64,000 nucleotides of DNA. It comes from Alphaproteobacteria bacterium (GTDB lineage: Bacteria; Pseudomonadota; Alphaproteobacteria; Bin95). Under the pieces are notes generated by a model. That model saw only the letters and a program-made list of their open reading frames with translations. It had not been told where the DNA came from and ran no database searches. Location of the stretch: NCBI GenBank assembly GCA_965205265.1, contig CBDBGH010000003.1, positions 2,432,001-2,496,000 of the forward strand. The letters run 5' to 3'. This document shows, one piece after another, positions 27,656 through 50,304 of this stretch (its first letter is position 1; each line of letters starts with the position of its first letter). The translations under genes were made by a program, and so were the position numbers.

Positions 27656-27747
27656 AGGCTATTGAAGCAGCAGCAGAATCGGGGTTTCATGTTTCTGTAT
27701 TTGTTCGCAACGCTGCCGGACTCCCGGCGAAGGAGCGGCCGGGTGTG

Positions 27748-29690: not shown

Positions 29691-29793
29691 TACCAGCGGC
29701 TGCAAGCAGGAACCGGTGAGTCTTTGCCGTCGTCCCGGACGGCGCGTCAGCGCCGTTCCGGGCCTCCTGGGGCAGGGGCAATGCCGCAAGGAG

Positions 29794-29838
29794 ATCCCGG
29801 CTCCCCACTCCGCTTCGCTCCGTTCCGGCCGGGGTGAT
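29794..29838. repeat. REP-like palindromic element
   Basis: ATCCCGGC...CGCTTCGCT...GCCGGGGTGA hairpin of the type seen in alphaproteobacterial intergenic repeats. Confidence 0.45.
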
Positions 29839-30026
29839 GCCGAAGGGGGGACCAGTACGCCCCACACTTTCGCGAGGGTAGGCGGCGGGGCGCGTTCTCC
29901 ATGAGCCGCAATCCGGCACCGCTGGTATGAAGCATCGCAAACCGACCCATATTCTGCGTTGGCGGCAATATGGAGCGGATTCCGCTCCATATTATATGCT
30001 GGCGATAACATAGGCCGCCCGCCGCC

Positions 30027-33116: not shown

Positions 33117-33233
33117 GAAGCCCGTCCCTACCCGTGAGGCGAACCCGGACCGCCTGCCGACGCAGCGCCTGTCCCGGCCCCCTTCGATGACAATGGAAAA
33201 CCGGGCCCGCGCCCGACTTCCCGTTGCGCGGGT

Positions 33234-33262
33234 ATATATGGACGCCCCTTTTGCCCTACAAG
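33234..33262 (-). promoter_or_regulatory. RpoH (sigma32)-type heat-shock promoter of dnaK
   Basis: Minus strand CTTG-N17-CCATATAT, resembling the alphaproteobacterial RpoH consensus. Confidence 0.7.
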
Positions 33263-33314
33263 ACCCGGCCGCCTTGCCCGAGGTGCGGCAAAAAATGCCA
33301 ATTCAGGCGAAAAA

Positions 33315-34139
33315 ATGACAAAGACCGTCGTTTCCGCAAGCTACCGCACGGACATCCCGGCCTTTTACGGCGACTGGTTCGCGCGCCGCCTCGCCGCCGG
33401 ATATGCGCTGGTCCGCAACCCGTGGTCCGGCAGCGCCTACCGGGTGGATCTCGCGCCCGAAGCCGTCGCCGGCTATGTCTTCTGGACCCGCAACCCCGCC
33501 CCCTTCATGCCCGTCCTGGCGGGGCTGGAGCGCCCTTTCGCCGTCCAGTTCACGATCACCGGCTACGGACGCCGGCTCGAGCCCTCGGTGCCCGCCCCCG
33601 AACGCGCCGTCGAGGCCGCCCATGCGCTCGCCGCGCTCTACGGCCCCCGATGCGTGGTCTGGCGCTACGACCCGATCCTGTCGCCGACCCAGGACCATGT
33701 CGAGGCCGCCGGGCGGCTGGCCGAATCGCTGCGGGGCGTCACCGACGAATGCGTCGTCTCCTTCGCATCCTTCTACCGCAAGACGGCCCGCAACCTGGCG
33801 GCGGCCGGCTTCGCCTGGGAGGACCCGGAGCCCGACCGCCGCCTCCGGCTGATCGAAGCGCTGGCGGATGCCGTCTCCCCGCTCCGCCTCACGGTCTGCG
33901 CGCAACCGGAACTGACCGGCGGCGCGGCCGAGCCGGCGCGCTGCATCGACCCCGCCCGGCTCGGCCTGGGCACGCTTCCGGAAAAAGGCAACCGGCCCGG
34001 CTGCGCCTGCGCCGCCAGCCGGGACATCGGCGCCTACGACACCTGCCCGCACGGCTGCCTTTACTGCTACGCCAATGCCTCGCCGCACGCCGCCCGGCGC
34101 CGCTTCAAGGCGCACGACCCCGAAGCCGAAATGCTTTAG
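33315..34139 (+). CDS. DUF1848 family protein
   Basis: SASYRTDIPAFY, FWTRNP, WRYDPI, DIGAYDTCPHGCLYCYA. Confidence 0.9.
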   Translation: MTKTVVSASYRTDIPAFYGDWFARRLAAGYALVRNPWSGSAYRVDLAPEAVAGYVFWTRNPAPFMPVLAGLERPFAVQFTITGYGRRLEPSVPAPERAVEAAHALAALYGPRCVVWRYDPILSPTQDHVEAAGRLAESLRGVTDECVVSFASFYRKTARNLAAAGFAWEDPEPDRRLRLIEALADAVSPLRLTVCAQPELTGGAAEPARCIDPARLGLGTLPEKGNRPGCACAASRDIGAYDTCPHGCLYCYANASPHAARRRFKAHDPEAEML

Positions 34140-34762
34140 CCGACCGCCTTCAGCATGCCCCCGACGGCCGCTTCGAACATGGCCGGGGTCAGCCGCCCGG
34201 TATTGGTGTTGTAGCGCGAACAATGGTAGCTGTCCGCCAGCAGGCGGCCGCAGGCGAGCCGGTGCAGGGCGCCGTGGGCGAACGGCCGGGCGGCGCGTTT
34301 CTCGCCCAGCGCGGCAAGCACCGCATCGTGGGCGACGCGCCCGAGCGCCAGCACCGCACCGCCTTCCGGCAGGTCTTCGAGTTCGCCCGCGAGGAAGGGG
34401 CGGCAGGCGGCCACTTCCGCGCCGACGGGCCTGTTTTGCGGCGGGACGCAGCGCACCGCATTGACGATGCGGCAGCCGGCGGGCGCGAAGCCGTCTTCGG
34501 CATGGCCGCCATAGCACCCCCGCGCCAGGCCGAACTTGAGCAGCGTTGCGAACAGCAGGTCGCCGGCATAGTCGCCGGTAAAGGGCCTGCCGGTCCGGTT
34601 CGCGCCGCGCAGGCCGGGCGCGAGGCCGACGATCAGGACCTTCGCGCCGCGCGGCCCGAATCCCGGCACAGGAGCATTGAACCAGCCGGGCTCCGCTTCC
34701 CGCCAACGATGCCGGAACGCCCGCAGGCGCGGACAGAAGGGACAGTCCGGATCAGGCTCCAT
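34136..34762 (-). CDS. Uracil-DNA glycosylase (family 5-like, Fe-S)
   Basis: CPFCPRL, GLAPGLRGANRTGRPFTGD, NAVRCVPPQN, YHCSRYN. Confidence 0.92.
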   Translation of the reverse strand: MEPDPDCPFCPRLRAFRHRWREAEPGWFNAPVPGFGPRGAKVLIVGLAPGLRGANRTGRPFTGDYAGDLLFATLLKFGLARGCYGGHAEDGFAPAGCRIVNAVRCVPPQNRPVGAEVAACRPFLAGELEDLPEGGAVLALGRVAHDAVLAALGEKRAARPFAHGALHRLACGRLLADSYHCSRYNTNTGRLTPAMFEAAVGGMLKAVG

Positions 34763-35375
34763 ACCGCTCTTCGACACCGTCCTGCGCCCCCTCGAAACGC
34801 AGGCTCTCCCGCTGGGCGCGGCGCATCTGGGCCGCTTCCCGCTCGTCCTCGTCGCGCATGATCGACGGCGCCAGATCGAGCAGGTCCATGAAGAAATCGG
34901 CCTGCCGGCGCAGGTCGTCGGAGACCATGGGCGGCTGGCTCTTCATCGTGCTGACGACGGTCACGCGCACGCCGCGCCGCTGCAGCGCCTCCACGAGGCG
35001 GCGGAAATCGCCGTCGCCGGAGAACAGCACGATATGCTCCAGATGATCGGCCATCTCCATCGCATCGACGGCGAGCTCTATATCCATGTTTCCCTTGATT
35101 TTTCGCCGGCCCATGGCGTCTGTGAACTCGCGCGCCGGCTTGGTGACCATGGTGAAGCCGTTATAGTCGAGCCAGTCCACCAGCGGGCGGATCGGCGAAT
35201 AGTCCTGATCCTCGATCAGCGCCGTGTAATAGAAGGCGCGGATGAGCCGCCCGCGCTTCGAGAAATAGTCGAGCATCCGCTTGTAATCGATATTGATGTT
35301 CAGGCCGCGCGCGGCTGCGTAAAGGTTCGCGCCGTCGATGAAAAGCGCGGTGCGTTCTTCCATATAGGTGCGCAT
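34752..35375 (-). CDS. NYN domain (LabA/DUF88) protein
   Basis: FIDGANLY, KGNMDIELAVD, SGDGDF. Confidence 0.92.
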   Translation of the reverse strand: MRTYMEERTALFIDGANLYAAARGLNINIDYKRMLDYFSKRGRLIRAFYYTALIEDQDYSPIRPLVDWLDYNGFTMVTKPAREFTDAMGRRKIKGNMDIELAVDAMEMADHLEHIVLFSGDGDFRRLVEALQRRGVRVTVVSTMKSQPPMVSDDLRRQADFFMDLLDLAPSIMRDEDEREAAQMRRAQRESLRFEGAQDGVEERYGA

Positions 35376-35461
35376 GGGAAACTCCGAAAACGGCGGCAAT
35401 CCGCTAAAGTGCTGCCGGCAAACTAGGCGAGACGCAGCCGCGCGACAAGAGGCCGCCGGGG

Positions 35462-35956
35462 ATGATTCTGATCGGATTGGGGGCGAACCTGCCGTCGCCG
35501 GAGCACGGGCCGCCGCAGGCGACGCTGGCGGCGGCGCTGGAGGCGCTGGCGGCGCGCGGCGCAAGGGTGTTGCGCCGTTCGCCCTGGTATGAGAGCGCGC
35601 CGGTGCCGCCGAGCGGCCAGCCCTGGTACGTCAACGCCGTGGCGGAGGTGGAAAGCCGGCTCTCCCCGCCGGCGCTGCTCGACGCCCTTCTCGCCGTCGA
35701 GGCGGGTTTCGGCAGGACCCGCGGCGCCCGCAATGCGTCGCGCTCGGTCGATCTCGACCTCCTGGACTATGGCGGCCTGGTGACGGGGCCGGACGAGAAG
35801 CCCGAACTGCCCCATCCCCGCCTGCATGAGCGCGCCTTCGTGCTGCTGCCCTTGCGCGACATCGCGCCCGGCTGGCGCCATCCTGCCTCCGGCCGGACGG
35901 TGGAGGCGCTGATCGAAGCCCTCGGCCGGGCCGGTCCGGTCCGGCGGCTGCCCTAG
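35462..35956 (+). CDS. folK: 2-amino-4-hydroxy-6-hydroxymethyldihydropteridine diphosphokinase
   Basis: [32 protein letters not shown]. Confidence 0.95.
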
Positions 35957-36125
35957 CCCTTGCGGAAAGGCGTTGCCGCGCCTGCGGCATTGGGTTAGAC
36001 TCGCGCCTTCTCCAGCCCTTGCCCGCCGCCCGGCGGGAGTTTCGGCCCCTTCCCCTCGCGTTCGAATCTTCCGCCTCCCGCGGGCGAGCCGGCTTTCAAC
36101 ATCAACGGATGGACGGTCCGAGGTC

Positions 36126-37427
<1,302 letters not shown>

Positions 37428-37442
37428 CGCCGGGAGGCCGCG

Positions 37443-37787
37443 ATGGAGCCCGGACCGGCCGCAATCCGGGAGGAAGGCGAAAGCCGGACGGAGCGCACGC
37501 TGCTCCGTCTCGCGGACAGCTATATCTGGTGGAAGACGCCGGAAGAGGCCGTCCGCTATCCGGACCGCGTGCTGGCGCAGGTCATGGACATCGGCACGTT
37601 GGAAGACTGCCGCGCCATGAGGGCGGCCTTCGGCGACGAGCGCCTCCGCGGGGTGCTGCACCGCGCCGAGCCCGGCTGGTTCCGCGCGCGGAGCTGGGCT
37701 TTCTGGCAGGCGGCGCTCGGCATCGACGCCGGCCCCCGCCCCGTCCGCCGCAAACTGCCGCCCGCCCCTTGGGAACGCCCGGCATGA
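37443..37787 (+). CDS. Putative antitoxin partner of the AbiEii toxin
   Basis: YIWWK...RVLAQVMDIGT...SWAFW; stop overlaps the start of the nucleotidyltransferase gene. Confidence 0.65.
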   Translation: MEPGPAAIREEGESRTERTLLRLADSYIWWKTPEEAVRYPDRVLAQVMDIGTLEDCRAMRAAFGDERLRGVLHRAEPGWFRARSWAFWQAALGIDAGPRPVRRKLPPAPWERPA

Positions 37788-38431
37788 CGGGCTTTACGCC
37801 GCGCACGGACATCCTGCCGCCGGCACAGGCGGCGCTCTGGCCGGCACTTGCGCCTGTGGCCAGCCTCGGCTTTACGCTTTACGGCGGAACCGCCATCGCG
37901 CTCCGGCTCGGGCACCGGGTATCGGAGGATTTCGACCTCTTCAGCGCCGCGCCGCTCGACAGCGACGCGATCCGCCGGGCCTGCCCCTTCCTGGCAAACA
38001 GGCCGGCGCTGCGCGAAGACGAGGACAGCTTCATCGTCAGGACGGCCGAGGACGTGCTGCTTTCCTTCTTCGGCGGCATCGACAACGGCACGGTCGCGCC
38101 GCCCGATACGGCTCCGGAGAACGGCCTGCCCGTCGCGTCCGCGCTGGACCTGCTGGCGACGAAGCTCAAGACGATCCTGCAGCGGGCCGCCGCCAAGGAT
38201 TATGCGGATATCGCGGCGCTGCTCCGGTCCGGCATCGCGCTGGAACGAGGCCTCGGCGCGGCCCGTGCGCTTTACGGGCCGGGCTACCCGCCCATGGAAT
38301 CGGTGCGCGCGCTCTGCTGGTTCGGCGACGGCGACCTCGGCACGCTTGCCGAGGAGGACCGCGGGCTGCTCGCCGATGCAGCGGCCGCAGCCGCAGGCCG
38401 GCCGGTCCCGGTCGTGCCGCTGCTCCGGTGA
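37784..38431 (+). CDS. AbiEii/AbiGii-family nucleotidyltransferase toxin
   Basis: LYGGTAIALRLGHRVSEDFDLF, KLKTILQR..KDYAD. Confidence 0.88.
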   Translation: MTGFTPRTDILPPAQAALWPALAPVASLGFTLYGGTAIALRLGHRVSEDFDLFSAAPLDSDAIRRACPFLANRPALREDEDSFIVRTAEDVLLSFFGGIDNGTVAPPDTAPENGLPVASALDLLATKLKTILQRAAAKDYADIAALLRSGIALERGLGAARALYGPGYPPMESVRALCWFGDGDLGTLAEEDRGLLADAAAAAAGRPVPVVPLLR

Positions 38432-38762
38432 TTTCCGGGCGGACGGGCGACGGCGTTCGGAATTCGGGATTTATTTCCGCAAAAAGCTTGCAAATTGCCG
38501 GCAGCCGCCCTATGTCCGGCAGCGTGGCAGGAGCCGAACGCGAGAGCATGACCTGGACCTGAGACCGGCGGCGGACCGTCCGCCCCGTGCGATGCTTGCA
38601 ACCCGTAGTGGAGACAACCGCCCGGGCAGCGGACGGGACAGGTGCGGCCGCTCGCATGCTTCCGGGCGGAAAATGTCGAAACGGGTTGGATATGCTTGCA
38701 CAGAGTTGCTCCGGTTTTCGTTTCACCGCCTGACGGAATTGGACGGGTCGCGCGCCGGCAGC

Positions 38763-39173
38763 TCAGGGTATCCGGACAGATTTGCATCGCGGCGGCCGGG
38801 CCGGCGTCCGCCGGGCGGGGCGGCGGCCGCGCCTGCGCTTGAAGCCGTGGCGCTTGAGGAACATGCGCACCGTGCCGTAGCCGAAGACGAGGCCCTGCTC
38901 GCGGAGCGCCGCCCGCAGGGCGTTTATGGGAAGTTCCGGGTCCTCCTCCAACAGGGCGAGGATCGCCCCGCTCGCGGCCTCGATGCGCCAGGAGCGGCGG
39001 TCGCCGCCCGTCTTCCGCGGCCGTGCATCGCCCCGCTCGCGCTCCAGCCGCCGCCAGCGCACGATGGTCGCCACGCCGACATCGAAGGTCTCCGCCGCCT
39101 CCACGAAGGTCATCCCCTCCGCAAGCGACGCAAGCACCCGGCTCCGCAATTCGATGGGCAGCGCTTTCGGCAT
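38763..39173 (-). mobile_element. IS630-family transposase N-terminal HTH remnant (no DDE domain)
   Basis: LRSRVLA..AEG...EAAETFDVGVATIVRW..., GGDRRS, TVRMFLKRHG; no catalytic ORF follows. Confidence 0.75.
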
Positions 39174-39280
39174 CTTCCCCGGACCTCCTTGGCCGGTGGA
39201 CACGAAATAGAACAAATGAGGAATATTGTAAAGACGACTCTGGCCAGACCCCGCAAGAGTTACCGGGCGCAGCGGAGCCC

Positions 39281-39330
39281 TTGACAACAATCTCGTTGCC
39301 AACAATATTGTTGCCAAGAAAATTGTTGGG
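39281..39330 (+). promoter_or_regulatory. 15-bp tandem repeat array / promoter of the NTPase operon
   Basis: TTGACAACAATCTCG TTGCCAACAATATTG TTGCCAAGAAAATTG TTGGG; starts with TTGACA and contains the palindrome CAACAATATTGTTG. Confidence 0.6.
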
Positions 39331-39339
39331 AATTGCGCA

Positions 39340-40618
39340 ATGCTGCAAAAAGGCGGAAGCAACTGGGTCGAGGGAGACCGCTTCTTCGACCGGGAGGTCG
39401 AGCTTGAGATCCTGACGGACCGCATGCGGGACGGAAATCACACCCTGGTGACCGCACAACGGCGCATGGGCAAGACGAGCCTCGTGCGGGAACTGCTGCG
39501 GCGCCTGGCGGAGGGCGGCGAATTCGAGACGGTCTTCGTCGATCTGGAAGCCGTCCTGGACCAGGCCGATACCATGGCCGAAATCACGGTTCGCGCCCGG
39601 CCTGTGAGCGGGGCATGGGGGCGGATCGAAGCCGGTTTCGTCAACATCCTGAAAGAAGTCGGCGGCCGAATCGAGGAACTGTCGGTCTCCGACCTGAAAG
39701 TGAAGCTGCGGGCCGGAATCGATGCCGGCAATTGGCCCCAGCGGGGCGATGCGGTCTTCGCCGCGCTCGCCGACAGCAACCGGCCGGTCGTGCTCGCCAT
39801 CGACGAACTGCCGATTCTCGTCAACCGCCTGCTCAAGGACGACAGCGGGCGAATCACGCCGGAAGGCAGGAAGGAAGCGGATGTGTTTCTGAGCTGGCTG
39901 CGCCGGAACGGGCAGGCCCATCGGGGACAGGTAACCATGATGCTGTCCGGCAGCGTCGGCCTTGAGCCGCTTCTCGAACAGGCTGGGCTGAGCGCCCACG
40001 CCAACATCTTCTCTGCCTACGACCATGAAGCCCTGGGATGAAGAGACCGCGGTATCGTGCCTGTCGGAGCTTGCCGGGAGCTACGAGGTCGGCCTGCCGC
40101 ACGGGATATGCCGGGACATGTGCCGGCGGCTCCGCTGCTGCATTCCCCACCATGTGCAGATGTATTTCGACAAGCTCCACGACCGTCTCAGGCACGCCGG
40201 TCGGCAGGCCGCAACGGAGGAGGATGCGGAAAGGGTCTATCTGCACGAGATGTTGAGCGTCCGGGGCCAGATGGACCTTCAACACTATGAAGACCGGTTG
40301 AGGACGATACTCGGAACGGCAGGCTATCCGGTCGCCATGGAGATACTGACCGCAACCGCTGTCGGCGGCCTTCTGGACGGCGATGCCGTTGGCCGTTACC
40401 GGGCGCATTTCGCGGCCGGGGCCGGGGATATCGAACCGGGCGGTCCGTCGGTCGGGGATGTGCTGCACGTCCTGCTCCATGACGGCTATCCGGAGCCGCA
40501 GGACGGCGGCTACCGGTTCAGGTCGGGTCTTCTCGAGGACTGGTGGCGGAACCGCTGGGGCGGAAGCTTCCGGCCCGTCATCGACGACGGGCGGCGGAGC
40601 GGGGGAGCGGGCCGATGA
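39340..40618 (+). pseudogene. STAND-like P-loop ATPase split by a 1-bp insertion (ORFs 39340-40041 and 40025-40618)
   Basis: FFDREVE, Walker A AQRRMGKTS, Walker B LAIDELP, LSGS, IPHHVQ, LLEDWW; removing A40025 restores ...AYDLKPWDEE. Confidence 0.75.
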
Positions 40619-43600
40619 CCGCCAGGAAATACAATCCGGGGTTCCTGTCCGACGACGAACTCGTCGCGACCTTCTGCGTGCGGACCCGGGAATTCGCCTC
40701 GATCGTCGAAACGCTCGGGGAATGCGACGGAAACTCGAACACGCACCAGATCGTCATCGGGCCGCGCGGCAGCGGCAAGACGAGCCTGCTGTTGCGGGTC
40801 GCGGCCGAGATAGACCGGGATGCCGGGCTCGCCTCGCGCTTCTTCCCGGTGGTCTTCGCGGAGGAGAGCTACGAAGTCTCGACTGTCGGGGAGTTCTGGC
40901 TCGAATGCCTATCGCGTCTGGCCGACCGGGCGCCGCAGCGCGAAGACGGTCCCGATCTGCGGCGCAGTTTCGAGGAACTGCGGGCCGTCCGGGACGACCG
41001 GGCGCTCGGGGACCGTTGCCTCGGCGCCCTGCAGGACTTCGCAGACCGTGAAGGCAAGCGCCTGGTGCTGTTCGTCGAGAACCTGAACATGATGTTCCGG
41101 GACATGGCGGACAAAGATGCCGGATGGAAGCTGCGCCACACGCTCCAGACCGAGCCGCGGATTGTCCTGCTGGCGAGCGCAACCAGCCGGTTCGACGAGA
41201 TGGACAGCCCGGACAAGGCCTTCTACGACCTCTTCCGGGTGCTGTTCCTGCGTCCTCTGGATACCGGCGACTGCGCGACCCTCTGGCAGCAGGTCTCGGG
41301 CCAGAGCCGGGCGCCGCAGACAATCCAGGCGTTGCGGATTCTCACCGGCGGCAGCCCCCGGCTTCTGACCATCGTGGCCCGTTTCGGGGCGAAGCTCTCG
41401 TTCCGCGAACTGATGGCCGACCTCCTGAACCTCGTGGATGACCATACCGAGTATTTCAAGAGCCACCTCGATGCGCTTCCCGCCCAGGAACGCCGTGTCT
41501 ATCTGGCCCTCGCTGCGTTATGGAAACCTGCGACTGCTCGCGAAATCGCTGACCGGGCGCGACTCGACACCAGCAAATGCAGCGCGCAACTCGCGCGACT
41601 GATCGATCGCGGCGCAGTCGAGACAACGGGCGGCAGCCCGCGGCGCAAGTTCTATTACCTCGCCGAGCGGCTCTACAACATCTACTACCTGATGCGCCGC
41701 GCCCGGGGACCCGCACCCCTGATCGAAGCGCTGGTCCGCTTCATGGAGGGATACTACTCGGCGGATGAGTTGAAGGAGTTCGGGGCCCGGATTGCGAGGG
41801 AGGCGCTGGAAACCGACGGCAAGGACCTGCCGCATTACCGGACCGCATTCCAGCAACTGGTCCGACTCCCGTCCCTGTCAGCGTACCGCGACGAATTGTT
41901 GTCGCTGACGCCGGCTGCGTTTGGCTTCGGCGAAGAGGGAAGCGGTTATTCCGCCGCGGACGGGCGTCCGGTATCGGCAAGGGAGCTTTTCGAGAACGGC
42001 CATGCCCTGGCCGAGGGCGGACGACTAAAGGAAGCTGTTGCGGCGTGGAAAGACCTCGTCCGCCGTTTCGGGGAAAGCGAAGCGGTGGACGACCGCAATC
42101 GGGTCTCGCTGGCGCTCGTAAATATGGGGACGGCGCTCGGGCGCCTGAACCGTTTCGAAGAGGCCCTTGCGGCCTGGGACGATGTTGTGCGGCGCTTCGG
42201 GGGAAACCGGGAACCTGCAATTCCTAATGCTGTCGCCACGGCCCTGCTAAAAACAGCGTTCCTGCACACCGAGGAGAACCGCCCGCTGGAAGCGCTGGCC
42301 GCATGCGACGAAGTCCTGCTGCGCTTTCGGGAGACGCGGATCGAGTCGCTTCAAAGTCTGCTCGCGAATGCGCTGATCGGCAAGACTGTTGCGCTTATGG
42401 CGTTGAACCGGCCGAACGAGGCTTTGGCCGCCTGCGACGAACTTTTGGGGCGTTTCGGCGCAAGCGCAGCGCCCGAATTCCTCGGCAGCATCGCCGCGGC
42501 CATGGCCGGTAGAGGCTCCGCCCTTCTCGCCCTTGGCCGTCTCGACGCAGCCGCGGCTGCATGGAGCCGGGTGGCGGAGCACTTCGGAAGCAGCGAGATT
42601 CCGGAAGCCATCGACCATGTTGCCATGGCGCTCGGCAACAAGGCGTCCGCTCTTGCCGGGCTCGGTCGCCCTGAAGAAGCGCTCGCCATATGCGAAGAGG
42701 TCCTGCACCGCTATACGGATGACCGTCGGCCGACACGGCGGGAACCGACCGCCGCCGCCTTGCTCCACAAGGGCAACGCCCTCGGTCTGTTGGGCCGCCA
42801 AGAGGAAGCGCTCGCCGCATGGAGTGAGTGCGCACAGCGCTTCGGTTCCGAACCGAACGAGCAAGTGCCGGTGGCATTGGCGCTGATGAGCACGGGCATG
42901 ACGCTGCTTCAAACAGACCGACCGGAAGAAGCATTGCCTGTCTGGGGCGACATCGTCCAACGCTTCGGAACGAGCGATCAGCCCCAGATACGTGCGGTTA
43001 TCGTCAAAGCTTTCACTCAAATGGGCACCTTGCTGGAGCACTTGGCCCGGCATGAGGAGGCTCTCGCCGTTTGGGAGGATGCCGAGCAGCGCTACGGAAC
43101 CGGAGTAGAGCCGGAATTTCTGGAACTGGTTGCCGGCTCTCTAGTCAACAGGGGCGCCACCCTCATCGAACTGGGCCGACTGGAGGAGGCGCTGGCGGTA
43201 TTCGACCGGGCGGTGCACCAATTCGAAACGAGCGAAGCGCCGGAGATCGTTTATTCCGTTGCAGCCGCTCTGCACAACAAGGGTTCTGTGCTCAACATGC
43301 TGAACCGGGCGGAAGAGGCGGTTGCGGTCTGGAATGAATTGATAAGCCGGTATGGCAACAGCAACGAGCCTTCAATCCTCAAGCAAGTTGCGGGTGCGGT
43401 TGTCGGCAAAGGTGCCGCGCTAGCCGGCATGGGTCGAATGGAAGAAGCGCTTACGGCCTGCGACGAGGTTCTCCATCGCTTCGGAGCGGACGCCGGACCG
43501 ACATATATCGAGGAGATGTGGACGGCTCTTTCCAACAAGATTACCGTTCTCGCCTTCCTGAACCGTCCGGAGGAGGCGCTGGCAGTCTGCGAGGAAGGTG

Positions 43601-44217
43601 TCCGGCGCTTTGAGGCCGGCACCGACACCGCAGCAGCGAACGCAATCGCCGCTTGCTTCGCGAAGAAAGGCGACCTGCTTGCCCAATTGGACAGGACCGA
43701 TGAGGCGGTCGCGGCCTGGAAGGAGGCGGTGCGGCGCTTTGGGGCCAGCGACGCGCCGGCGCTGCGCCAAACCGCCGATACGGCCCTGATCGGACTCGCC
43801 GGGCATGAGTTGAAGCAGGGGAACGCCGGGGCGGCCGTGGAGGCCGCAGACCGGGTTCTGCAACATGAGAAAGGAACGCCGGACAGCCGGTGGCGCGCCC
43901 TCTTCGTCCGCGCCTTGGCCCATCTTAAGGAAGGAGACAGAGCCGCATGCGCCCTCGACATCGAGGCGGGACTGGAGGTCCTTCCCGGCCTCGACATTCT
44001 CCCGAAGGATGCCCTGGACGCCCTGTCGGACATCGCTCTGGTATTCGGCCTGGCCGAAACGGGCGATCTCATCCGCAAGTCGCCAGCCTCCGACCTGCTG
44101 CTTCCCCTGACAACGGCCTTTGAGTTGGAACTGGGCCTGGAGCCGCGCGTGGCGAAGGAAGTCGAGGAAGTTGCCGAAGACATCCGGCGGGATTTGCGGG
44201 AGCGGCAAGGAAATTGA
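40615..44217 (+). CDS. STAND-like NTPase - wHTH - TPR-repeat protein (about 1200 aa)
   Basis: GPRGSGKT, LFVENLN, LTGGSPR, ATAREIADRARL (wHTH), about 14 repeats of about 43 aa (AL.nkg..L..LgR.eEAla..d..v.RFg). Confidence 0.85.
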   Translation: MTARKYNPGFLSDDELVATFCVRTREFASIVETLGECDGNSNTHQIVIGPRGSGKTSLLLRVAAEIDRDAGLASRFFPVVFAEESYEVSTVGEFWLECLSRLADRAPQREDGPDLRRSFEELRAVRDDRALGDRCLGALQDFADREGKRLVLFVENLNMMFRDMADKDAGWKLRHTLQTEPRIVLLASATSRFDEMDSPDKAFYDLFRVLFLRPLDTGDCATLWQQVSGQSRAPQTIQALRILTGGSPRLLTIVARFGAKLSFRELMADLLNLVDDHTEYFKSHLDALPAQERRVYLALAALWKPATAREIADRARLDTSKCSAQLARLIDRGAVETTGGSPRRKFYYLAERLYNIYYLMRRARGPAPLIEALVRFMEGYYSADELKEFGARIAREALETDGKDLPHYRTAFQQLVRLPSLSAYRDELLSLTPAAFGFGEEGSGYSAADGRPVSARELFENGHALAEGGRLKEAVAAWKDLVRRFGESEAVDDRNRVSLALVNMGTALGRLNRFEEALAAWDDVVRRFGGNREPAIPNAVATALLKTAFLHTEENRPLEALAACDEVLLRFRETRIESLQSLLANALIGKTVALMALNRPNEALAACDELLGRFGASAAPEFLGSIAAAMAGRGSALLALGRLDAAAAAWSRVAEHFGSSEIPEAIDHVAMALGNKASALAGLGRPEEALAICEEVLHRYTDDRRPTRREPTAAALLHKGNALGLLGRQEEALAAWSECAQRFGSEPNEQVPVALALMSTGMTLLQTDRPEEALPVWGDIVQRFGTSDQPQIRAVIVKAFTQMGTLLEHLARHEEALAVWEDAEQRYGTGVEPEFLELVAGSLVNRGATLIELGRLEEALAVFDRAVHQFETSEAPEIVYSVAAALHNKGSVLNMLNRAEEAVAVWNELISRYGNSNEPSILKQVAGAVVGKGAALAGMGRMEEALTACDEVLHRFGADAGPTYIEEMWTALSNKITVLAFLNRPEEALAVCEEGVRRFEAGTDTAAANAIAACFAKKGDLLAQLDRTDEAVAAWKEAVRRFGASDAPALRQTADTALIGLAGHELKQGNAGAAVEAADRVLQHEKGTPDSRWRALFVRALAHLKEGDRAACALDIEAGLEVLPGLDILPKDALDALSDIALVFGLAETGDLIRKSPASDLLLPLTTAFELELGLEPRVAKEVEEVAEDIRRDLRERQGN

Positions 44218-44365
44218 GTTGCTGTCCGGCGCCCTTTCCGTCGGCAACCCCGCTTTCCGTTGTTCTCCGGCGGTGCAACATTCTGCGGGTTGGGCGGGGC
44301 GCGGCCCCTGCCACCCGGCCCGCAGGCCTTGCCACCGCCCCGCGGCCGCTATAGGGTCCGCCGCC

Positions 44366-44490
44366 ATGAGCCCACGGACCTGCATCTGCGTTTCCCGACG
44401 CCGCGCCTGCGTGTAGGCGGTCGCGGGCTCGTTCACTAAGCACCACAATCCAGACAGCCGCGACTGCCGCCGGGAGGCGGGGTCCCTTTT
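44366..44490 (+). promoter_or_regulatory. Candidate leader peptide / attenuator upstream of argD
   Basis: u[19 protein letters not shown] (44366-44416); 44417-44429 pairs with 44456-44467; competing hairpin 44462-44484 followed by CCTTTT. Confidence 0.55.
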
Positions 44491-44531
44491 GCTGTCCTTG
44501 TCCTCGGCGCCCGAGCGGGAAGGACAGGACC

Positions 44532-45737
44532 ATGACGACACTCGCAGAGCCGCAGGCGGAAAACGCGGCGCACGACCCCTATAGGGCCCTGATGGAAATC
44601 ACCCGGCGGCCCGCCATCACCTTCACGCACGGGCGGGGCGGGCTGCTCTGGGACAGCGAGGGCAACCGCTATCTGGACTTCATCCAAGGCTGGGCGGTGA
44701 ACTGCCTCGGGCATAGCCCCCCGGCCGTCGCCCGCGCGCTGGCGGAGCAGTCGGCCCGGCTGCTCAACTGCAGCCCCGCCTATTACAGCGAGCCGATGAT
44801 GCGCTATGCGAATGCGCTGACGGCGGCGGCGGGCCTGGAGCGGGTCTTCTTCGCCAATAGCGGCGCGGAGGCGAATGAGGGCGCCATAAAGCTCGCGCGG
44901 AAATGGGGCGCGAAGCACCGCGGCGGCACCTATGAGATCGTCACCACCGTCGGCGGCTTCCACGGCCGGACGCTCGCCACCATGTCCGCATCGGGCAAGG
45001 CGGGCTGGGACGGGCTGTTCGAACCGAAGGTGGCCGGGTTCCCGAAAGTGCCGTTGAACGACCTGGCGGCCGTCGAGGCCGCGGTCGGGGACCGGACCGC
45101 CGCCGTCATGCTGGAGCCGATCCAGGGCGAGTCCGGCGTGTGGCCCGCGGATGACGGCTATCTGAGGTCCCTGCGCGCCCTGGCCGACCGGCGGGGCATC
45201 CTGCTGATCCTCGACGAGATCCAGACCGGCATGGGCCGGACCGGAAGCCTGTTCTGCTTCGAGCATGCCGGCGTCCGCCCGGACATCGTGACGCTCGGCA
45301 AGGGGATCGGGGCCGGAACTCCTCTCGCGGCGCTGCTCGCGCGCGAGGAAGTCTGCTGTTTCGAGCCGGGCGACCAGGGCGGCACCTATAACGGCAATGC
45401 GCTGATGGCCGCGGTCGGCCATGCGGTGCTCGAAGAGCTCACTGCGGACGGCTTCCTCGAGCGCGTCTGCGAGGCCGGGGCGGCGCTGCGGCGCGGCTTG
45501 GAGAGCCTCAGCGGGAAATACGGCCTCGGCGGCGTGCGCGGCAGGGGGCTGCTGCTTGCCCTCGACCTGACGCCGCGTTCCGACGGGTTCGCCCTCGTCG
45601 AGAAGGCGCTGGCGAAGGGACTGCTGCTCAACGCCCCCGCCCCCGACGCGCTCCGCTTCGTGCCGGCGCTCAACGTTACCGATGCGGAAATCGCCGAGAT
45701 GCTGGATGTGCTGGACGGCTTGCTGGAAGGCCGGTAG
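44532..45737 (+). CDS. argD: Acetylornithine aminotransferase (class III PLP)
   Basis: [47 protein letters not shown]. Confidence 0.88.
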
Positions 45738-45827
45738 CCGGCGGTGCGGCGGGTGCGGCGGCAGAGGCGGCAAGACAAACAGTTCGCTTATTCGCTTCAC
45801 CGCTGCGATTGCCTTTGCTAACCTAGA

Positions 45828-46006
45828 CTTCCTCTTAGCTGGGTGCTCTCGAATGACTCGACTTGAGGTCACTCTATGCCGGGTGTTTAGCCAGGCTGCA
45901 TGCAATTGCGCGAGTTTGGGCGCCGACTTGGCCGAGCCAAGGCGCACCCGGCTCCGCTCGGGCCCGCCTTGGCTCGGCCAAGTCGGCTTCGCTAGGTAAG
46001 AGGCAG
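45828..46006 (+). ncRNA. msr-msd: Retron msr-msd ncRNA
   Basis: a2 CCTCTTA (45831-37) then branching G45838; a1 TAAGAGG (45997-46003); msr stem-loops; perfect 23-bp msd stem 45922-45944/45965-45987. Confidence 0.88.
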
Positions 46007-46011
46007 AGGAA

Positions 46012-46926
46012 GTGGACCATCCGCTTCTCAGCGCGGACCAAGCCGCGCTACGCCGGCGGTTGGTCCACTTCCTCAAAACTGCCCTTTCTGTCCAGCGCTC
46101 CAGCAATATCATATTTTTGTGTGGGGGCACCAACTCCAACGATTTGCGAATGACCTTTAAGGAGTACTGCCAAAACCATCTACAAGAATATCAAATTTTT
46201 CTGCCTGAGGCAGCTATGACGCCCCTCTTCTCTGACGACCTACAAGAACCTTTTGATCTCACAGATTTTGAGGTCCTTGTTGGCCGAATATCGCTAGCCA
46301 TCGTTCTCTTTCCTGAAGCCGCTGGCTCCTATGCTGAAACCGGTTATTTTTCTGCAATTCCAGCTCTCGCTCAAAAATGCATCCTTGTTTTGGATCGAAA
46401 ATACCAATCTGACGACAGCTTCTTGTCACTTGGCCCTGCAAAAAAAATCTCCGAACAGTCGATCTTTCATCCGAACATCACTCTCGATTACTGTCAACCA
46501 GACTTTGAAACAATAACCACCAGACTACGTTCTCGAAAACTTTCTAAGAAACGTAAATCTTTGCAAATTGACAAATTTTCTGATTTGTCCGAATACGAAA
46601 TCATTGTTGTGTTAGATATGATTGTAAGGCTTTGTAAAATTGCAACTCTATCAGATATAAATTACTTGCTAGCCGCGATTTTCAAAAATAGATTTTCACA
46701 ATCAAAAATTCAGAAACTTTTGTCGATTTTAGTTGGCTCAAATTATCTTCAAGAGATTGGTCCATATGGTCACTTTACCAGTGGTAACGACAAGCTATCT
46801 CTCGCGATTGTTCGGGAAGGTTTCAAAAATGACGAACAAGAATTGCGATTGTCATTAACAACAATTTGCCAAAAGGCAGAGCCGGATTTTGTGAATCTAA
46901 TTAGGGCACCGACCTATGTTGATTGA
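46012..46926 (+). CDS. Retron St85-family effector (NDT-like plus probable wHTH; RcaT-like toxin)
   Basis: IFLCGG, FPEAAGSYAETGYF, SFLSLGP motifs; AT-rich; lies between the ncRNA and the RT. Confidence 0.85.
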   Translation: MDHPLLSADQAALRRRLVHFLKTALSVQRSSNIIFLCGGTNSNDLRMTFKEYCQNHLQEYQIFLPEAAMTPLFSDDLQEPFDLTDFEVLVGRISLAIVLFPEAAGSYAETGYFSAIPALAQKCILVLDRKYQSDDSFLSLGPAKKISEQSIFHPNITLDYCQPDFETITTRLRSRKLSKKRKSLQIDKFSDLSEYEIIVVLDMIVRLCKIATLSDINYLLAAIFKNRFSQSKIQKLLSILVGSNYLQEIGPYGHFTSGNDKLSLAIVREGFKNDEQELRLSLTTICQKAEPDFVNLIRAPTYVD

Positions 46927-47851
46927 AGATCTTCAAATTCAGTCAGGACTTTCACGCCAGCAATTACTCTATCTGTCCAACACGGCATCAAAGAGATATA
47001 AATCTTATACGATTCAGAAACGCAATGGAGGATCGCGAACGATTCACCATCCTAGTAGGACGCTAAAGGCAATTCAGCGATGGCTTAATTTGGTTCTAAT
47101 TTCTAACCTGCCAGTACATGATAGCGCAACTGCATACAGGAAAGGACAAAGCATTCGATCGAATGCCATGATGCATGCGAAAACACGGTTCACATTGCGA
47201 ATGGACTTCAGAGAATTTTTTCCATCCTTTTGCGTCCATCATGTCCGAGAATTTATCGAAAGGAAAGGATCGGAAATCGGTTGGGAATTAAGTGACGATG
47301 ATTTAGAATTTGTAGCGAAAATAAGTACCAGATTTGATTTTTTAACTATAGGAGCCCCATCATCACCGACCTTGACTAATGCGATGATGTATGGATTTGA
47401 TTATCGTGTGTCGGATTGGGCAGATGCAGAAGGATTGATTTATACTCGATACGCTGATGATCTGTTTATTTCGTCTCGAAGACCTAACAAATTAGCGGCA
47501 GCGCGGGATAGAATATTGGAAGAAAGTGCACAATTTAAATACGCAAAACTAATCATAAATGACAAGAAAACAGCATACTTGTCGCGGCGATATCGACGAA
47601 CAATTACTGGCTTGGTTGTAACACCGGGGGAGCGAGTATCCATTGGACGGGGACGTAAGCGCGAAATAAAAAGTATGGTTCACAGGTTTATGGCAGGGTC
47701 GATGACAATCGGAGAAATAGACAAGTTGCGCGGACTAGTCGGGTATTCTAAGGGAGTGGAACCAAGCTTTTATGATTCTGTTTGTGTCAAGTATGGGAAA
47801 TCGGTGTTAGAGAAGGTGCTCAAGGGAGATTTGGAGGCGAAGCGCGTTTAG
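46916..47851 (+). CDS. Retron reverse transcriptase (St85 family)
   Basis: KRNGGSRTI, retron region X NAMMH, DFREFFPS, GAPSSP, YTRYADD, region Y ITGL. Confidence 0.95.
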   Translation: MLIEDLQIQSGLSRQQLLYLSNTASKRYKSYTIQKRNGGSRTIHHPSRTLKAIQRWLNLVLISNLPVHDSATAYRKGQSIRSNAMMHAKTRFTLRMDFREFFPSFCVHHVREFIERKGSEIGWELSDDDLEFVAKISTRFDFLTIGAPSSPTLTNAMMYGFDYRVSDWADAEGLIYTRYADDLFISSRRPNKLAAARDRILEESAQFKYAKLIINDKKTAYLSRRYRRTITGLVVTPGERVSIGRGRKREIKSMVHRFMAGSMTIGEIDKLRGLVGYSKGVEPSFYDSVCVKYGKSVLEKVLKGDLEAKRV

Positions 47852-47880
47852 CAGAGAAAACGAAAGACAAGCTCACTTTC

Positions 47881-48098
47881 GAGAATGCGGCGGTCTGCTC
47901 AGGACCGGCATGGCCGCCGACATCGTGGTGTTCGACGAGGCGGCGGTGAAGCCCTGCCTGCCGACGGTGGAACACGACCTGCCCGGCGGCGAGCACCGGC
48001 TGGTGCAGAAGGCCGAGGGCATCGACGCCACCATCGTCAACGGCGAGAGCACCGGTGCCGTTCCGGGCGGAGTCATAAGGGGCCCGCTCGCGGCTTAG
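47881..48098 (+). pseudogene. C-terminal remnant of an N-acyl-D-amino-acid deacylase-type amidohydrolase
   Basis: GLLRTGMAADIVVFD...DLPGG..RL.QKAEGIDATIVNGE..TGAVPG; no N-terminal part. Confidence 0.7.
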
Positions 48099-48130
48099 CG
48101 GCGTCCCCTCCTCCGGCCTGTCCGAGCGGA

Positions 48131-48354
48131 CTAACCGTCCCCCTCCGCGATATCCGTCTTCAGCGCCCGTTTCACGCCCTCGCTGCGGCTGTGGATCGGG
48201 GCGAACTGGCCGTTCAGGCGGAGGAACTGGTTCAGTTGGTTGCCGAAACCGAGCGCGCCGTGCAGCGCCATGTCCTCCGCCAGCCGGCAGGTGGTCCTGG
48301 TGCGCCGGACGGCCTAGGGCACGCGGCCGGTCAGCGTGCCGAAGAACACCGCCA
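48131..48354 (-). pseudogene. Degenerate copy of the 3' end of the enoyl-CoA hydratase gene
   Basis: Aligns by eye to 49158-49370; TGG to TAG stop at about 48314. Confidence 0.8.
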
Positions 48355-48448
48355 TCGCTTTGGAGAATCTGCTTAACCAAGCCTTGACCAAGGCTGTAAT
48401 GGCGGTTATCTGCGGGCGGACACGGACATGCGGACAGGAACAGGGTCC

Positions 48449-48682
48449 ATGCCTCCCACCTTCAATATCGGCGATGCCAAGACGCGGTTGTCGCATCTGA
48501 TCGCCCAGGCCGAGGAAGGCCGGGATGTCGTCATCGCGCGCAACGGCGTGCCGGCAGCCCGCATTGTGCCGATACGGGAACCGGTCGCCCGCACCGTCGA
48601 ACTGTTGAGGCAGGAACGGAAGGAGCGCCCCGCCGTCTCCGCCGAGGAGATTCGCGCCGCCAGGGACGAGGGCCGCGCCTGA
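48449..48682 (+). CDS. Phd/YefM family antitoxin
   Basis: FNIGDAKTRLSHLI..AEEG.DVVIARNGVPAARIVP. Confidence 0.9.
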   Translation: MPPTFNIGDAKTRLSHLIAQAEEGRDVVIARNGVPAARIVPIREPVARTVELLRQERKERPAVSAEEIRAARDEGRA

Positions 48683-49083
48683 TGGCTGTCGTTATCGACG
48701 CCTCCATCGCGGCGGCATGGTGCTTCCCCGACGAGCGGGCGCAGGCGGCCGAGCAAGTTCTGGATATGCTGCCGCAAACCGGAGGCGTCGTTCCCGGACT
48801 CTTCCGGCATGAAATCCGCAATATACTGATCGTGAACGAACGCCGCGGCCGTATCGACCGCACCCAAAGCCTGCGGTTCCTGACACGTTTGCGGAGCCTG
48901 CAACTGGTGCAGGACGATTCTCATGACGAAGACACGGTCCTCGCGCTCGCCCGCAATCGCCGCCTGTCCGCCTACGACGCTTCCTATCTGGAGACCGCGT
49001 TGCGCCGGGGCGACAGCCTTGCGACGCTCGATCGCGCCCTTGCCCGCGCGGCCTCCGCCGAAGGTGTAACCGTCATCGCCTGA
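48682..49083 (+). CDS. vapC: VapC (PIN domain) toxin
   Basis: VVIDAS, HEIRN, LSAYDASYL, LATLD. Confidence 0.9.
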   Translation: MAVVIDASIAAAWCFPDERAQAAEQVLDMLPQTGGVVPGLFRHEIRNILIVNERRGRIDRTQSLRFLTRLRSLQLVQDDSHDEDTVLALARNRRLSAYDASYLETALRRGDSLATLDRALARAASAEGVTVIA

Positions 49084-49132
49084 ACGGGCCTCGCTCCGAC
49101 ACGGCGCCGGGCGGCCTCCTTCCTGCGGCGGC

Positions 49133-49948
49133 TTACCCGCCTTCCACCGCCTCCTCATCCGCAATATCCGTCTTGAGGGCCTGTTTCACGCCCTCGCTGC
49201 GGCTGTGGATCGGCGCGATCTGGCCGTTCAGGCGGAGGAGCTGGTTCAGCTGGTTGCCGAAATTGAGCGCGCCGTGCAGCGCCATGTCCTCGGCGAGGCG
49301 GTAGGTCGTCTTGGTGCGCCGGACCGCCCAGGGCGCGCGGTCCGCGAGCGTGCCGACGAAGGCGGCCACCGCCCCGGCCAGCCCGCCCGGCTCCGCCAGC
49401 CGGTTCACCAGGCCGAACTCGCGATACTGCTCGGCGGTGTAGAGGTCGCCGGTCATGGCGATCTCCAGCCCCCGGCGCCGCCCGATCTGGCGCGTGAGCA
49501 GCGCGATGTTCATGGCGGCCGGGAAGCCGTAGGCCATCTCCACATTGCCGAACCGCGCGCCGCGCTCGGCCACGACGAAATCGCAGGCGAGCGACATGGC
49601 CTGCCCGCCGCCGAGCGCCATGCCGTGCACAGCCGCAATCGTCGGCTTCGGCGATTCGATCAGCAGCGAGAGCGCCTCCAGGAAGATGTCCACCGCCGCG
49701 TCCACGGACATGTCCTGGAGAATGGCGGCCTCCTCGAATTCGGAGGCGTCGCGACCGGAGGTGAAGCAGTCGCCCGCGCCCCGGACGACGATGGCGCGCA
49801 CCTCGTCATCCGCAATGGCGCTGCGCACGGCCGCTGCGAACGCTGCCAGCAGCGCGTCGTTCATCGCGTTCTTCTTCTCCGGGCGGTTGAGCGTCAGCAC
49901 GGCGGCGCGGCCCTCTTGCGAGACGAGCACGAGCGGTCGGTCCGGCAT
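49133..49948 (-). CDS. Enoyl-CoA hydratase/isomerase family protein
   Basis: LTLNRPEKKNAMN, KPTIAAVHGMALGGG, CDF. Confidence 0.92.
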   Translation of the reverse strand: MPDRPLVLVSQEGRAAVLTLNRPEKKNAMNDALLAAFAAAVRSAIADDEVRAIVVRGAGDCFTSGRDASEFEEAAILQDMSVDAAVDIFLEALSLLIESPKPTIAAVHGMALGGGQAMSLACDFVVAERGARFGNVEMAYGFPAAMNIALLTRQIGRRRGLEIAMTGDLYTAEQYREFGLVNRLAEPGGLAGAVAAFVGTLADRAPWAVRRTKTTYRLAEDMALHGALNFGNQLNQLLRLNGQIAPIHSRSEGVKQALKTDIADEEAVEGG

Positions 49949-49998
49949 GAAACAAGCTCCTCGGGTTCCGGGCAGTCCGGCGGGCGGTGGGCTTCGCT

Positions 49999-50304
49999 TT
50001 AACCCGACGCGCGCAGCCGGTCATCGGTATCGAGCGTAGGCAGGCGGGCAATCTCCACTCCGCTCTTTCGCTCCGCCAGCCGCAATTCGTAGAGCTTTTG
50101 AAGGTTCAGCCAGAACTCGCCGGACGTCCCAAAGAAACGGCCCAGGCGCAGCGCCGTGTCCCCGGTGACGGCGCGGCGCCCGTTCAGGATTTCGGTAATC
50201 CGGTTTACCGGAACCTCAATCCGCCGGGCCAGTTCGGCCGCGCTCATGCCCAGCGCATCGAGGTCCTCCCTCAGGGTCTCGCCCGGATGGATGGGGTCAC
50301 GCAT
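49999..50304 (-). CDS. higA: HigA family antitoxin
   Basis: PIHPGETL, RITEILNGRRAVTGDTALRLGRFFGTSGEFWLNLQ. Confidence 0.93.
   Translation of the reverse strand: MRDPIHPGETLREDLDALGMSAAELARRIEVPVNRITEILNGRRAVTGDTALRLGRFFGTSGEFWLNLQKLYELRLAERKSGVEIARLPTLDTDDRLRASG

Follow-up and report, generated by a model that had tools for sequence, protein, structure and literature searches.

The window, that is, the whole 64,000-nucleotide stretch of DNA analyzed here (G+C content of about 70%), carries at 39277-44217 a two-gene cassette of 4.9 kb, in which a promoter with repeated boxes is followed by gene 1 and then by gene 2 (Table 1). A first-pass annotation had described gene 1 as a P-loop ATPase with the motifs RRMGKT and IDE, coupled by an ATGA overlap to gene 2, a nucleotide-binding protein with the motifs GPRGSGKT, an atypical VENLN, and GGSPR, followed by a winged helix-turn-helix (wHTH) and about 14 diverged 43-residue repeats resembling tetratricopeptide repeats (TPRs). 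All of these features were found. In gene 1, Walker A reads RRMGKT and Walker B reads VLAIDELP, the ATGA at 40615-40618 joins the stop codon of gene 1 to the ATG of gene 2, and the last of the gene 2 motifs lies within ILTGGSPRL. Pfam assigns the wHTH of gene 2 to the TrmB type and adds an AAA_16 match at residues 20-178, as well as many TPR models; the repeats number 14, and the region shows no tandem similarity at the DNA level. The lid domain of gene 1 contains a near-invariant Cys/His cluster (C..LRCCIPHH), and its winged helix is marked by the motif HDGYL..YRF.SGLLEDWW.

In relatives, gene 1 is a single continuous open reading frame (ORF) of 411-450 amino acids. Alignment with the orthologues at loci L001, L003, L037, and L018 shows one extra A at 40025 in the window. 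The same extra A, with zero differences nearby, is carried by Logan contigs from runs X1 (depth 823), X4, and X5, which come from three studies (X1 or X4 is possibly the window's own source); a 2451-nt contig from X6, a run labelled sponge metagenome, has 21 differences and lacks it. The insertion is a real strain mutation, in line with the mention of a "repaired operon" in the first-pass annotation, which implied a broken gene 1. Since the insertion makes an ATG in the new frame, a split gene 1 product is conceivable. With gene 1 frameshifted, the module in this genome is probably degenerate, or else it may run in a gene-2-only mode, as on some plasmids.

Structural models place the two proteins in one broad class. 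For gene 1, we modelled the intact L001 orthologue with AlphaFold2 (mean pLDDT 83.9). Its best Foldseek matches were the Protein Data Bank (PDB) entries 2QEN (E 8e-13) and 2FNA (2.5e-10), followed by archaeal Orc1/Cdc6, all at 15-17% identity, and a profile match to 2QEN was obtained at E 0.004. The N-terminal fragment of gene 1 in the window scores 28 bits against PF01637, under the Pfam cut-off of 33.2, and most homologues carry a precomputed PF01637 assignment. With its AAA+ domain, lid, winged helix, and N-terminal F.DRE.EL motif, gene 1 is predicted to be a PF01637/Orc1-Cdc6-like AAA+ ATPase with a winged helix. Residues 1-470 of gene 2 gave a model with a pLDDT of 77.4, in which the NOD matches ORC/Cdc6 about equally with Apaf-1, CED-4, NRC, and MalT (8bob), at E of about 1e-5 and TM of 0.3-0.4. 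The nSTAND Pfam models score under their cut-offs on gene 2, and a PDB search with the NOD profile returned P-loop, ORC4, or MarR-level matches at best. "STAND" and "ORC-like" are not separated by these results, and the earlier description of both as STAND-like NTPases is borne out at the fold level in this wider form: as modelled, genes 1 and 2 both encode ORC/STAND-class ATPases with a winged helix. ESM Atlas look-ups returned just unnamed or "ATP-binding protein" clusters, and the C-terminal tail of gene 2 matched nothing among PDB sequences under E 0.13.

The nucleotide-binding sites of the two proteins differ. In gene 2, the Walker A motif is invariant and the Walker B motif has the atypical form hhhhV-E-N, with V154, E155, and N156 invariant; in the modelled strand register, Val would occupy the first acidic position and Glu the second. 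The Walker B motif of gene 1 is canonical (D-E), and this difference suggests that gene 1 is a hydrolyzing partner and gene 2 a switch-like sensor. Complex prediction for gene 1 (L001 orthologue) with the gene 2 NOD returned scores of 0.00 and 0.00, which count neither for nor against binding.

The 14 TPRs of gene 2 form a putative NLR-like C-terminal repeat sensor that evolves faster than the NOD. Between the window and L001 or L003, the NOD is 94% or 91% identical and the TPR array 74% or 72%; relative to the next clade, the values are about 80% for the NOD and about 47% for the TPRs. The C-terminal tail, a putative helical cap, diverges to an intermediate degree, and the number of repeats varies widely among relatives. 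This pattern fits a variable sensor on a constrained engine, although drift, too, is easier in repeats.

No effector domain (nuclease, TIR, SIR2, protease, etc.) was found in the window proteins with Pfam and PADLOC, and the absence noticed by the first-pass annotation extends to the relatives examined. In 146 of the 150 best representatives, the gene 2 NOD begins within residues 1-14, which leaves these without an N-terminal extension, and seven of the longest family members contain solely AAA_16 and TPR matches with no effector domain. As had been predicted, PADLOC 2.0.0 yielded only P-loop-level matches for the pair (13-22 bits; for gene 2, mad8, CARF, and Csa3 at 14-18 bits). NCBIfam release 20 gave nothing specific above its cut-offs, and no specific model for this family is present in PADLOC 2.0.0, NCBIfam release 20, or Pfam. 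Full-text literature searches found no description of the pair or of its boxes. Six supplementary files of a 2026 STAND survey do not contain five homologue accessions (four for plasmid copies of gene 2, one for gene 1), an absence that concerns those files and does not prove omission from the survey. Altogether, the effector-less paired ATPase cassette with its own operator is probably an undescribed surveillance module of defence type.

Table 1. Coordinates of the cassette, its parts, and its immediate neighbors in the window
Feature	Position	Strand	Remarks
Operator/promoter array	39281..39332	+	Four boxes over sigma-70-like promoter
Gene 1 N-terminal fragment, 233 aa	39340..40041	+	Frame 1; AAA+ nucleotide-binding domain; RRMGKT, VLAIDE; premature TGA after frameshift
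One-base insertion (A)	40025..40025	+	Breaks gene 1 frame; gives in-frame ATG to second half
Gene 1 C-terminal fragment, 197 aa	40025..40618	+	Frame 2; lid domain with Cys/His cluster and winged helix
Gene 2, 1200 aa, intact	40615..44217	+	NOD, wHTH, TPR repeats, C-terminal tail
Gene 2 NOD module	Residues 1-400	+	GPRGSGKT, VENLN, GGSPR
Gene 2 TrmB-like wHTH	Residues 291-345 (41485-41649)	+	Pfam, 31 bits vs cut-off 25.6
Gene 2 TPR array	Residues 473-1072 (42031-43830)	+	14 repeats of 43 aa, one of 41
Gene 2 C-terminal tail	Residues 1073-1200 (43831-44214)	+	Conserved among relatives
IS630-type transposase, N-terminal remnant	38763-39173	-	Directly upstream of cassette
AbiEii nucleotidyltransferase	37784-38431		With 114-aa upstream ORF of no family; both within 37443-38431
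Class-III aminotransferase gene	44532-45737		Between cassette and retron
Type II-A retron (NDT effector and reverse transcriptase)	46012-47851		PADLOC 164 and 339 bits

A co-inherited pair with its own box array

Both genes belong to large families. For the gene 2 NOD, a 90%-clustered collection holds more than 3110 relatives, many of them 75-96% identical and with total lengths of 680-1214 amino acids; against 1.84 billion representatives (50%-identity clusters), the NOD profile found 4918 at E <=1e-3 and 2415 at E <=1e-30. Gene 1 has more than 1981 relatives of 413-459 amino acids, named just "ATP-binding protein" or "AAA family ATPase". Among contigs taken from one genome per species, 176 stretches hold a relative, and our locus analyses use the best 80 of these 176 (57-93% identity). 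Gene 2 proteins range in total length from 525 to 1363 amino acids. The titles of the source metagenome-assembled genomes (MAGs) name Alpha- and Gammaproteobacteria, Latescibacterota, Binatia, Acidobacteriota, Chloroflexota, Spirochaetia, Syntrophobacterales, and Rhodothermales. The cassette occurs in at least eight phyla, mostly in sponge-associated MAGs, and some genomes hold several copies. The isolate labels "jk18x" denote Ircinia sponge MAGs in the available text of PMC9531527, and several runs holding the window sequence are labelled sponge metagenome. Remote homologues lie on plasmids of the cultured bacteria Agrobacterium, Sphingobium, Clostridium, and Moraxella, which live in soil, in food, and on skin; no relative was found among 50,697 phage records or in IMG/VR.

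The two genes are inherited together, as the first-pass annotation had expected of a functional pair. Of the 78 loci that include upstream DNA, 77 have gene 1 immediately upstream of gene 2; only L007 does not. The cassette is patchy in the window's genus (6 of 16 species) and was found in 0 of 20 species of two sister genera, and the two genes are present in an identical set of 6 among 36 relatives of the window's order. Pairwise distances of genes 1 and 2 correlate at r = 0.94, a value reached in 0 of 999 Mantel permutations; since linked genes have a shared history, this shows co-inheritance, not interaction. The pair architecture is retained at 30-35% identity in genome G004, as well as on the plasmids of Clostridium tagluense and Moraxella osloensis, where the upstream ATPase is a full-length gene 1 homologue (hhalign probability against the gene 1 profile of 98.3% and 99.3%, respectively, over about 370 columns). 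The Agrobacterium and Sphingobium plasmids hold a solo gene 2 homologue and no gene 1; an "ATP-binding protein" near the Sphingobium homologue was considered as a gene 1 relative and rejected, at an hhalign probability of 0.1%. All-against-all clustering of ORFs of at least 80 amino acids found no conserved third gene, the largest neighbor family being present in 9 of 80 loci.

The Moraxella osloensis plasmid pSKB0120-2 (L093 3826-12268) has a four-gene variant with overlapping starts, which consists of a gene 1 homologue (397 amino acids), a gene 2-like NOD protein (709 amino acids), a 1248-residue protein, and another large STAND-like protein. The 1248-residue protein has no Pfam family and might be the effector or the sensor of that branch.

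Broken copies of the pair are found as well. Besides the window and G008, in which gene 1 has two frameshifts, gene 1 is broken in 9 of the 77 loci in which a signal for it is present: it is split in six (L027, L028, L051, L055, L072, and L076, where L027 and L028 resemble one element) and truncated in three (L008, L052, and L071). Gene 2 is split in 3 of 70 loci (L047, L055, and L069).

Upstream of gene 1, four boxes, TTGACAAC, GTTGCCAAC, GTTGCCAAG, and GTTGGGAA, which are of the type GTTGNCAAC and are spaced by 14-15 bp, overlap a sigma-70-like promoter (TTGACA-17-AATATT at 39281-39309, 10/12 in the scan). The only sigma-70-like matches within 38900-44700 are those at this array. The window contains three box pairs, versus none in 100 shuffles, and paired boxes with at most one mismatch occur in the 5.7-Mb genome at 39280-39333 alone; when relaxed to three mismatches, the search returns 10 places, versus 4 for the reversed control, which is a background-level result. 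The array accompanies the cassette across phyla. At least one strict box lies within 200 nt upstream of gene 1 in 57 of 59 loci and at least two in 35 of 59, box density is 9.05 per kb upstream of gene 1 versus 0.096 per kb in the rest of the loci, and 45 of the 53 intervals between boxes measure 14 or 15 bp. Analogous repeats are present on divergent branches: G004 has CATTGCCAA, Clostridium has TTGACAA/TTGTCAA, and Moraxella has a different 20-mer.

In Agrobacterium and Sphingobium, boxes of the GTTGCCAAC type lie directly upstream of the solo gene 2 homologues. Because boxes also precede gene 2 where gene 1 is missing, gene 2 is probably the protein that binds them; its winged helix, whose recognition-helix region is nearly invariant, would recognize the GTTGNCAAC boxes and autoregulate the cassette. 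Two outputs, ATP depletion and DNA binding, had been proposed in the first-pass annotation, and a box array that travels with gene 2 gives indirect support to the latter.

Mobility and genomic surroundings

The cassette behaves as a mobile unit. When copies at different genomic sites are compared, their similarity extends from 39277-39296 to 44191-44212, and the G+C content at third codon positions of genes 1 and 2 is 0.76-0.79, versus 0.89-0.92 in neighboring core genes. At the genus level, the site is a variable hotspot downstream of rho (window 37428-48107), after which genus members rejoin at a landmark of about 220 bp (47890-48107, 80-85% identity in four genomes) that has no tRNA, Rfam, or Pfam match. 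Genomes G016 and G001 have rho and the AbiE pair in common with the window and then jump to the landmark, and G013, the genome of L001, is collinear over 32690-45770 without the retron. Insertion sequence (IS) remnants abut the window copy, the second G016 copy, and the G010 copy. A segment akin to the IS630-type remnant of Table 1 also lies downstream of rho in G009. Scans of 37000-50000 for tRNA and Rfam families found no tRNA, integration-site RNA gene, or retron noncoding RNA and returned one sub-threshold chance miRNA match.

A tree of gene 2 shows eight label changes among phyla, where the minimum is 6 and the shuffled mean 23.9. The cross-phylum placements are few, and some are on short contigs that are possibly mis-binned. 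The picture that the tree suggests is one of a few old inter-phylum transfers followed by retention, not of constant shuffling.

The cassette had been placed between an AbiEii pair and a retron, and this is confirmed, with the IS630-like remnant and an aminotransferase gene also in between. AbiEii and its upstream ORF are kept next to rho in G016, G001, and G013. The aminotransferase is 91% identical in G013 only, among five genus members, the others having paralogue-level matches of 65-72%; being confined to G013, it is part of the variable stretch, not of the core. The retron forms a patch of 44% G+C in the 70% G+C genome. Just beyond it, at 48428-49083, lie genes for a Phd/YefM antitoxin and a PIN-domain toxin (VapBC-like). 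Further upstream, the stretch between dnaK and rho (33315-35564) encodes a DUF1848 protein, listed by PADLOC as DRT-associated (113 bits), together with a UDG-family glycosylase and a NYN-domain protein. The G+C content is also lower (58%) in a second patch, at 27700-30011, where one ORF has just the C-terminal portion of an N6/N4 DNA methylase domain and an unassigned ORF of 337 residues lies on the other strand.

To place the cassette among its neighbors across the family, we considered, in 70 loci, the two ORFs closest to it on either side (261 ORFs, many of which are probably not genes), with PADLOC run on the neighbors of all 70 loci and Pfam on those of the first 37. PADLOC matches were accepted for 21 ORFs in 15 of 70 loci, candidate families included, and in 8 of 70 a named defence gene is found no more than two ORFs away. 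Three of these eight loci (L004, L007, and L041) have an Hma/"BR" methylase-helicase-DUF499 system beside or around the cassette; the others are L043 (ThsB), L050 (AbiEi), L058 (type I restriction-modification), L062 (methylase), and L064 (type IIG restriction-modification). Seven loci have PADLOC candidate families only, and matches at L019, L029, L032, and L054 were set aside as weak or generic-domain. Under the null of 0.0153 that the available text of PMC13581612 gives for DefenseFinder systems located within 5 kb, 8 of 70 has a binomial P of 1.2e-5. Since the counts are single-protein matches in related loci and the null is not matched to these genomes, this enrichment of defence genes is only suggestive. 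The site itself is a variable hotspot with AbiE, a retron, and VapBC; across loci, linkage to defence genes is just moderate (8 of 70, or 15 of 70 with candidates). The plasmid homologues adjoin Pycsar, AbiE, and E1/E2/JAB/TIR genes, with AbiE on the Sphingobium plasmid.

In L007 (3454-17225), L004 (4840-13986), and L041 (203-6471), the cassette is inside or beside a system of DUF499 ATPase, DUF1156 methylase, and SNF2 helicase, an arrangement that the accessible part of PMC12839542 terms "BR" systems. The L007 system carries gene 2 alone, without gene 1.

Interpretation and rival explanations

We read the cassette, with confidence slightly short of even, as an autoregulated NLR-like surveillance module directed against phage or other mobile DNA, with an output that comes from the ATPases themselves. 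Gene 2 would be a STAND/ORC-Cdc6-like nucleotide switch with its atypical, invariant VEN Walker B, and its wHTH would most probably sit on the boxes over its own promoter, either as an autorepressor or as a resting anchor. The conservation pattern suggests that the fast-evolving array of 43-residue TPRs is the ligand sensor, and gene 1, translationally coupled and co-inherited, is probably the partner or executor. Binding of a foreign protein by the TPR array would then lead to a nucleotide-dependent assembly of both ATPases, and the output might be, for example, a nucleoprotein complex that blocks DNA transactions, with no need for a fused enzyme.

Several observations weigh against this reading. 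No effector domain is found in any family member examined, so that the proposed output is a conjecture. The frequent breaks in gene 1 and the existence of solo gene 2 show that the pair is not obligatory. The gene 2 tree largely follows phyla, which indicates long vertical retention and strong constraint, not rapid turnover, and mean column identity across phyla is 72% for the NOD and 65% for gene 1, far above typical defence genes. The assignment of the boxes to gene 2 derives from their co-occurrence. The count of defence neighbors has the limits given above (single-protein matches, non-independent loci, and a borrowed null), sponge-associated genomes may have a higher defence background, and most immediate neighbors are metabolic or housekeeping genes (Pfam, first 37 loci), with transposases in five.

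A more specific version of the same idea is rather doubtful in our view. Here the cassette would be a paired ORC-like NLR, in which an operator-seated sensor captures an invader protein and joins gene 1 in a DNA-bound complex that halts replication or transcription, and which has been passed among at least eight phyla of the sponge habitat.

Selfish maintenance, which we regard as fairly unlikely, would make the cassette either an addiction system of toxin-antitoxin type or a device for plasmid stability or replication control, with an ORC-like ATPase acting on iteron-like repeats and a costly or toxic gene 1 curbed by gene 2. The Orc1/Cdc6-like fold of both proteins would suit such a role, as would direct-repeat boxes of 14-15 bp that are confined to their own promoter in the manner of iterons or toxin-antitoxin operators. 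Homologues are present on conjugative and other plasmids, the Clostridium copy lying about 3 kb from a replication initiator gene; some genomes have several copies; and orphan gene 2 occurs. In addition, inactivation per kb is about five times more frequent in gene 1 than in gene 2 (9/77 over 1.3 kb vs 3/70 over about 3.3 kb). However, chromosomal copies are single and lie among housekeeping genes without integrase, partition, or replicon features, and neither the known antitoxins nor Rep proteins resemble a protein of 1200 residues that has a fast-evolving TPR sensor.

Another explanation, to which we give a low probability, is a self-contained, signal-responsive regulator of the MalT/AfsR/GutR kind, whose TPRs sense a small molecule or protein of the habitat and whose role is physiological (e.g., in sponge life), with no conflict involved. 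The combination of a STAND NTPase, a TPR-like sensor, and repeated boxes follows the logic of MalT and AfsR, regulators of a type that PMC13581612, in the part available, cites as non-immune STANDs. MalT (8bob) is among the fold matches of gene 2, whose wHTH passes the Pfam cut-off; conservation of the core is strong, and the clade has its main concentration in sponge-associated MAGs. On the other hand, the genome's sole good box array is the one over the cassette's own promoter (three-mismatch sites, 10 vs 4 in the control), which leaves no regulon to regulate. Moreover, there is no third gene that recurs beside the pair (at most 9 of 80 loci for any neighbor family), Pfam finds no LuxR or SARP DNA-binding domain, and the module is patchy and horizontally acquired.

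A eukaryote-like TPR protein for host interaction, delivered to or mimicking proteins of the sponge host, was the alternative raised by the first-pass annotation and is very improbable: TPR proteins are reported as enriched "eukaryotic-like proteins" of sponge microbiomes in the available text of PMC9531527, many loci come from sponge MAGs, and near-identical DNA is found in sponge-metagenome runs, but the N-terminus of gene 2 leads straight into the P-loop domain with no signal sequence visible by eye, gene 2 is coupled to a second ATPase and a DNA operator, the two proteins appear to be cytoplasmic and linked to DNA, and the same core recurs in remote homologues on plasmids of soil, food, and skin bacteria.

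Comparison with known systems and significance

A close parallel to the surveillance reading is offered by Avs/bNACHT proteins (Avs1-21). As in these, there is a central NOD-type NTPase and, after it, a long TPR-like sensor whose evolution is faster than that of the NTPase, and the cassette is accessory, horizontally mobile, and at times beside other defence genes. Unlike Avs, the cassette proteins have no fused effector domain, match no PADLOC Avs (AVAST) model, and come with a second, co-inherited ATPase and their own operator array. In the tested Avs families, removal of the effector abolished cell death, as reported in the accessible text of PMC13581612.

To our knowledge, bacterial NLR-like sensors reported to date work by way of a fused effector. 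MalT, AfsR, and GutR have in common with the cassette a STAND NTPase, a helical-repeat sensor, and repeated boxes, where binding of the boxes is, for the cassette, a putative property. In contrast to MalT and AfsR, the putative DNA-binding element of the cassette is a wHTH within the NOD rather than a LuxR or SARP domain at a terminus, boxes lie only at its own promoter and not at the several promoters of a regulon, a partner ATPase is present, and the cassette is mobile and patchy.

Gene 1 resembles Orc1/Cdc6 and the PF01637 proteins 2QEN and 2FNA in its predicted AAA+, lid, and winged-helix fold and in its N-terminal FFDRE..EL motif. Orc1/Cdc6 binds repeated origin boxes; we know of no function assigned to 2QEN or 2FNA. 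Unlike Orc1/Cdc6, gene 1 is bacterial, accessory, and paired with a STAND-TPR protein, with no origin context seen and with 15-17% identity.

Effector-less ORC/Cdc6-class ATPases do serve in defence. In BREX and in the DUF499 "BR"/Hma systems, such ATPases (BrxC, BrxD, and the iSTAND BrxB) are scaffolds or recognition units, according to the available part of PMC12839542. The pair differs from these in that it has no sequence match to BrxC or DUF499 models and that the cassette is mostly without methylase, PglZ, or helicase.

Given its cross-phylum occurrence in one habitat, the cassette is useful as a marker for gene flow within sponge microbiomes, and its homologues on plasmids of cultured Clostridium, Moraxella, Agrobacterium, and Sphingobium make the question of its function testable at the bench. 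What we describe is a large family that pairs two ORC/STAND-class ATPases, without an effector, with a portable operator. If the role in defence is true, the family would represent a different way for STAND proteins to yield an output and, in bacteria, a counterpart of sensor/helper NLR pairs. Should it prove to be a maintenance or regulatory module, it would still be an unusually well-conserved mobile cassette that is common to several phyla in one habitat.

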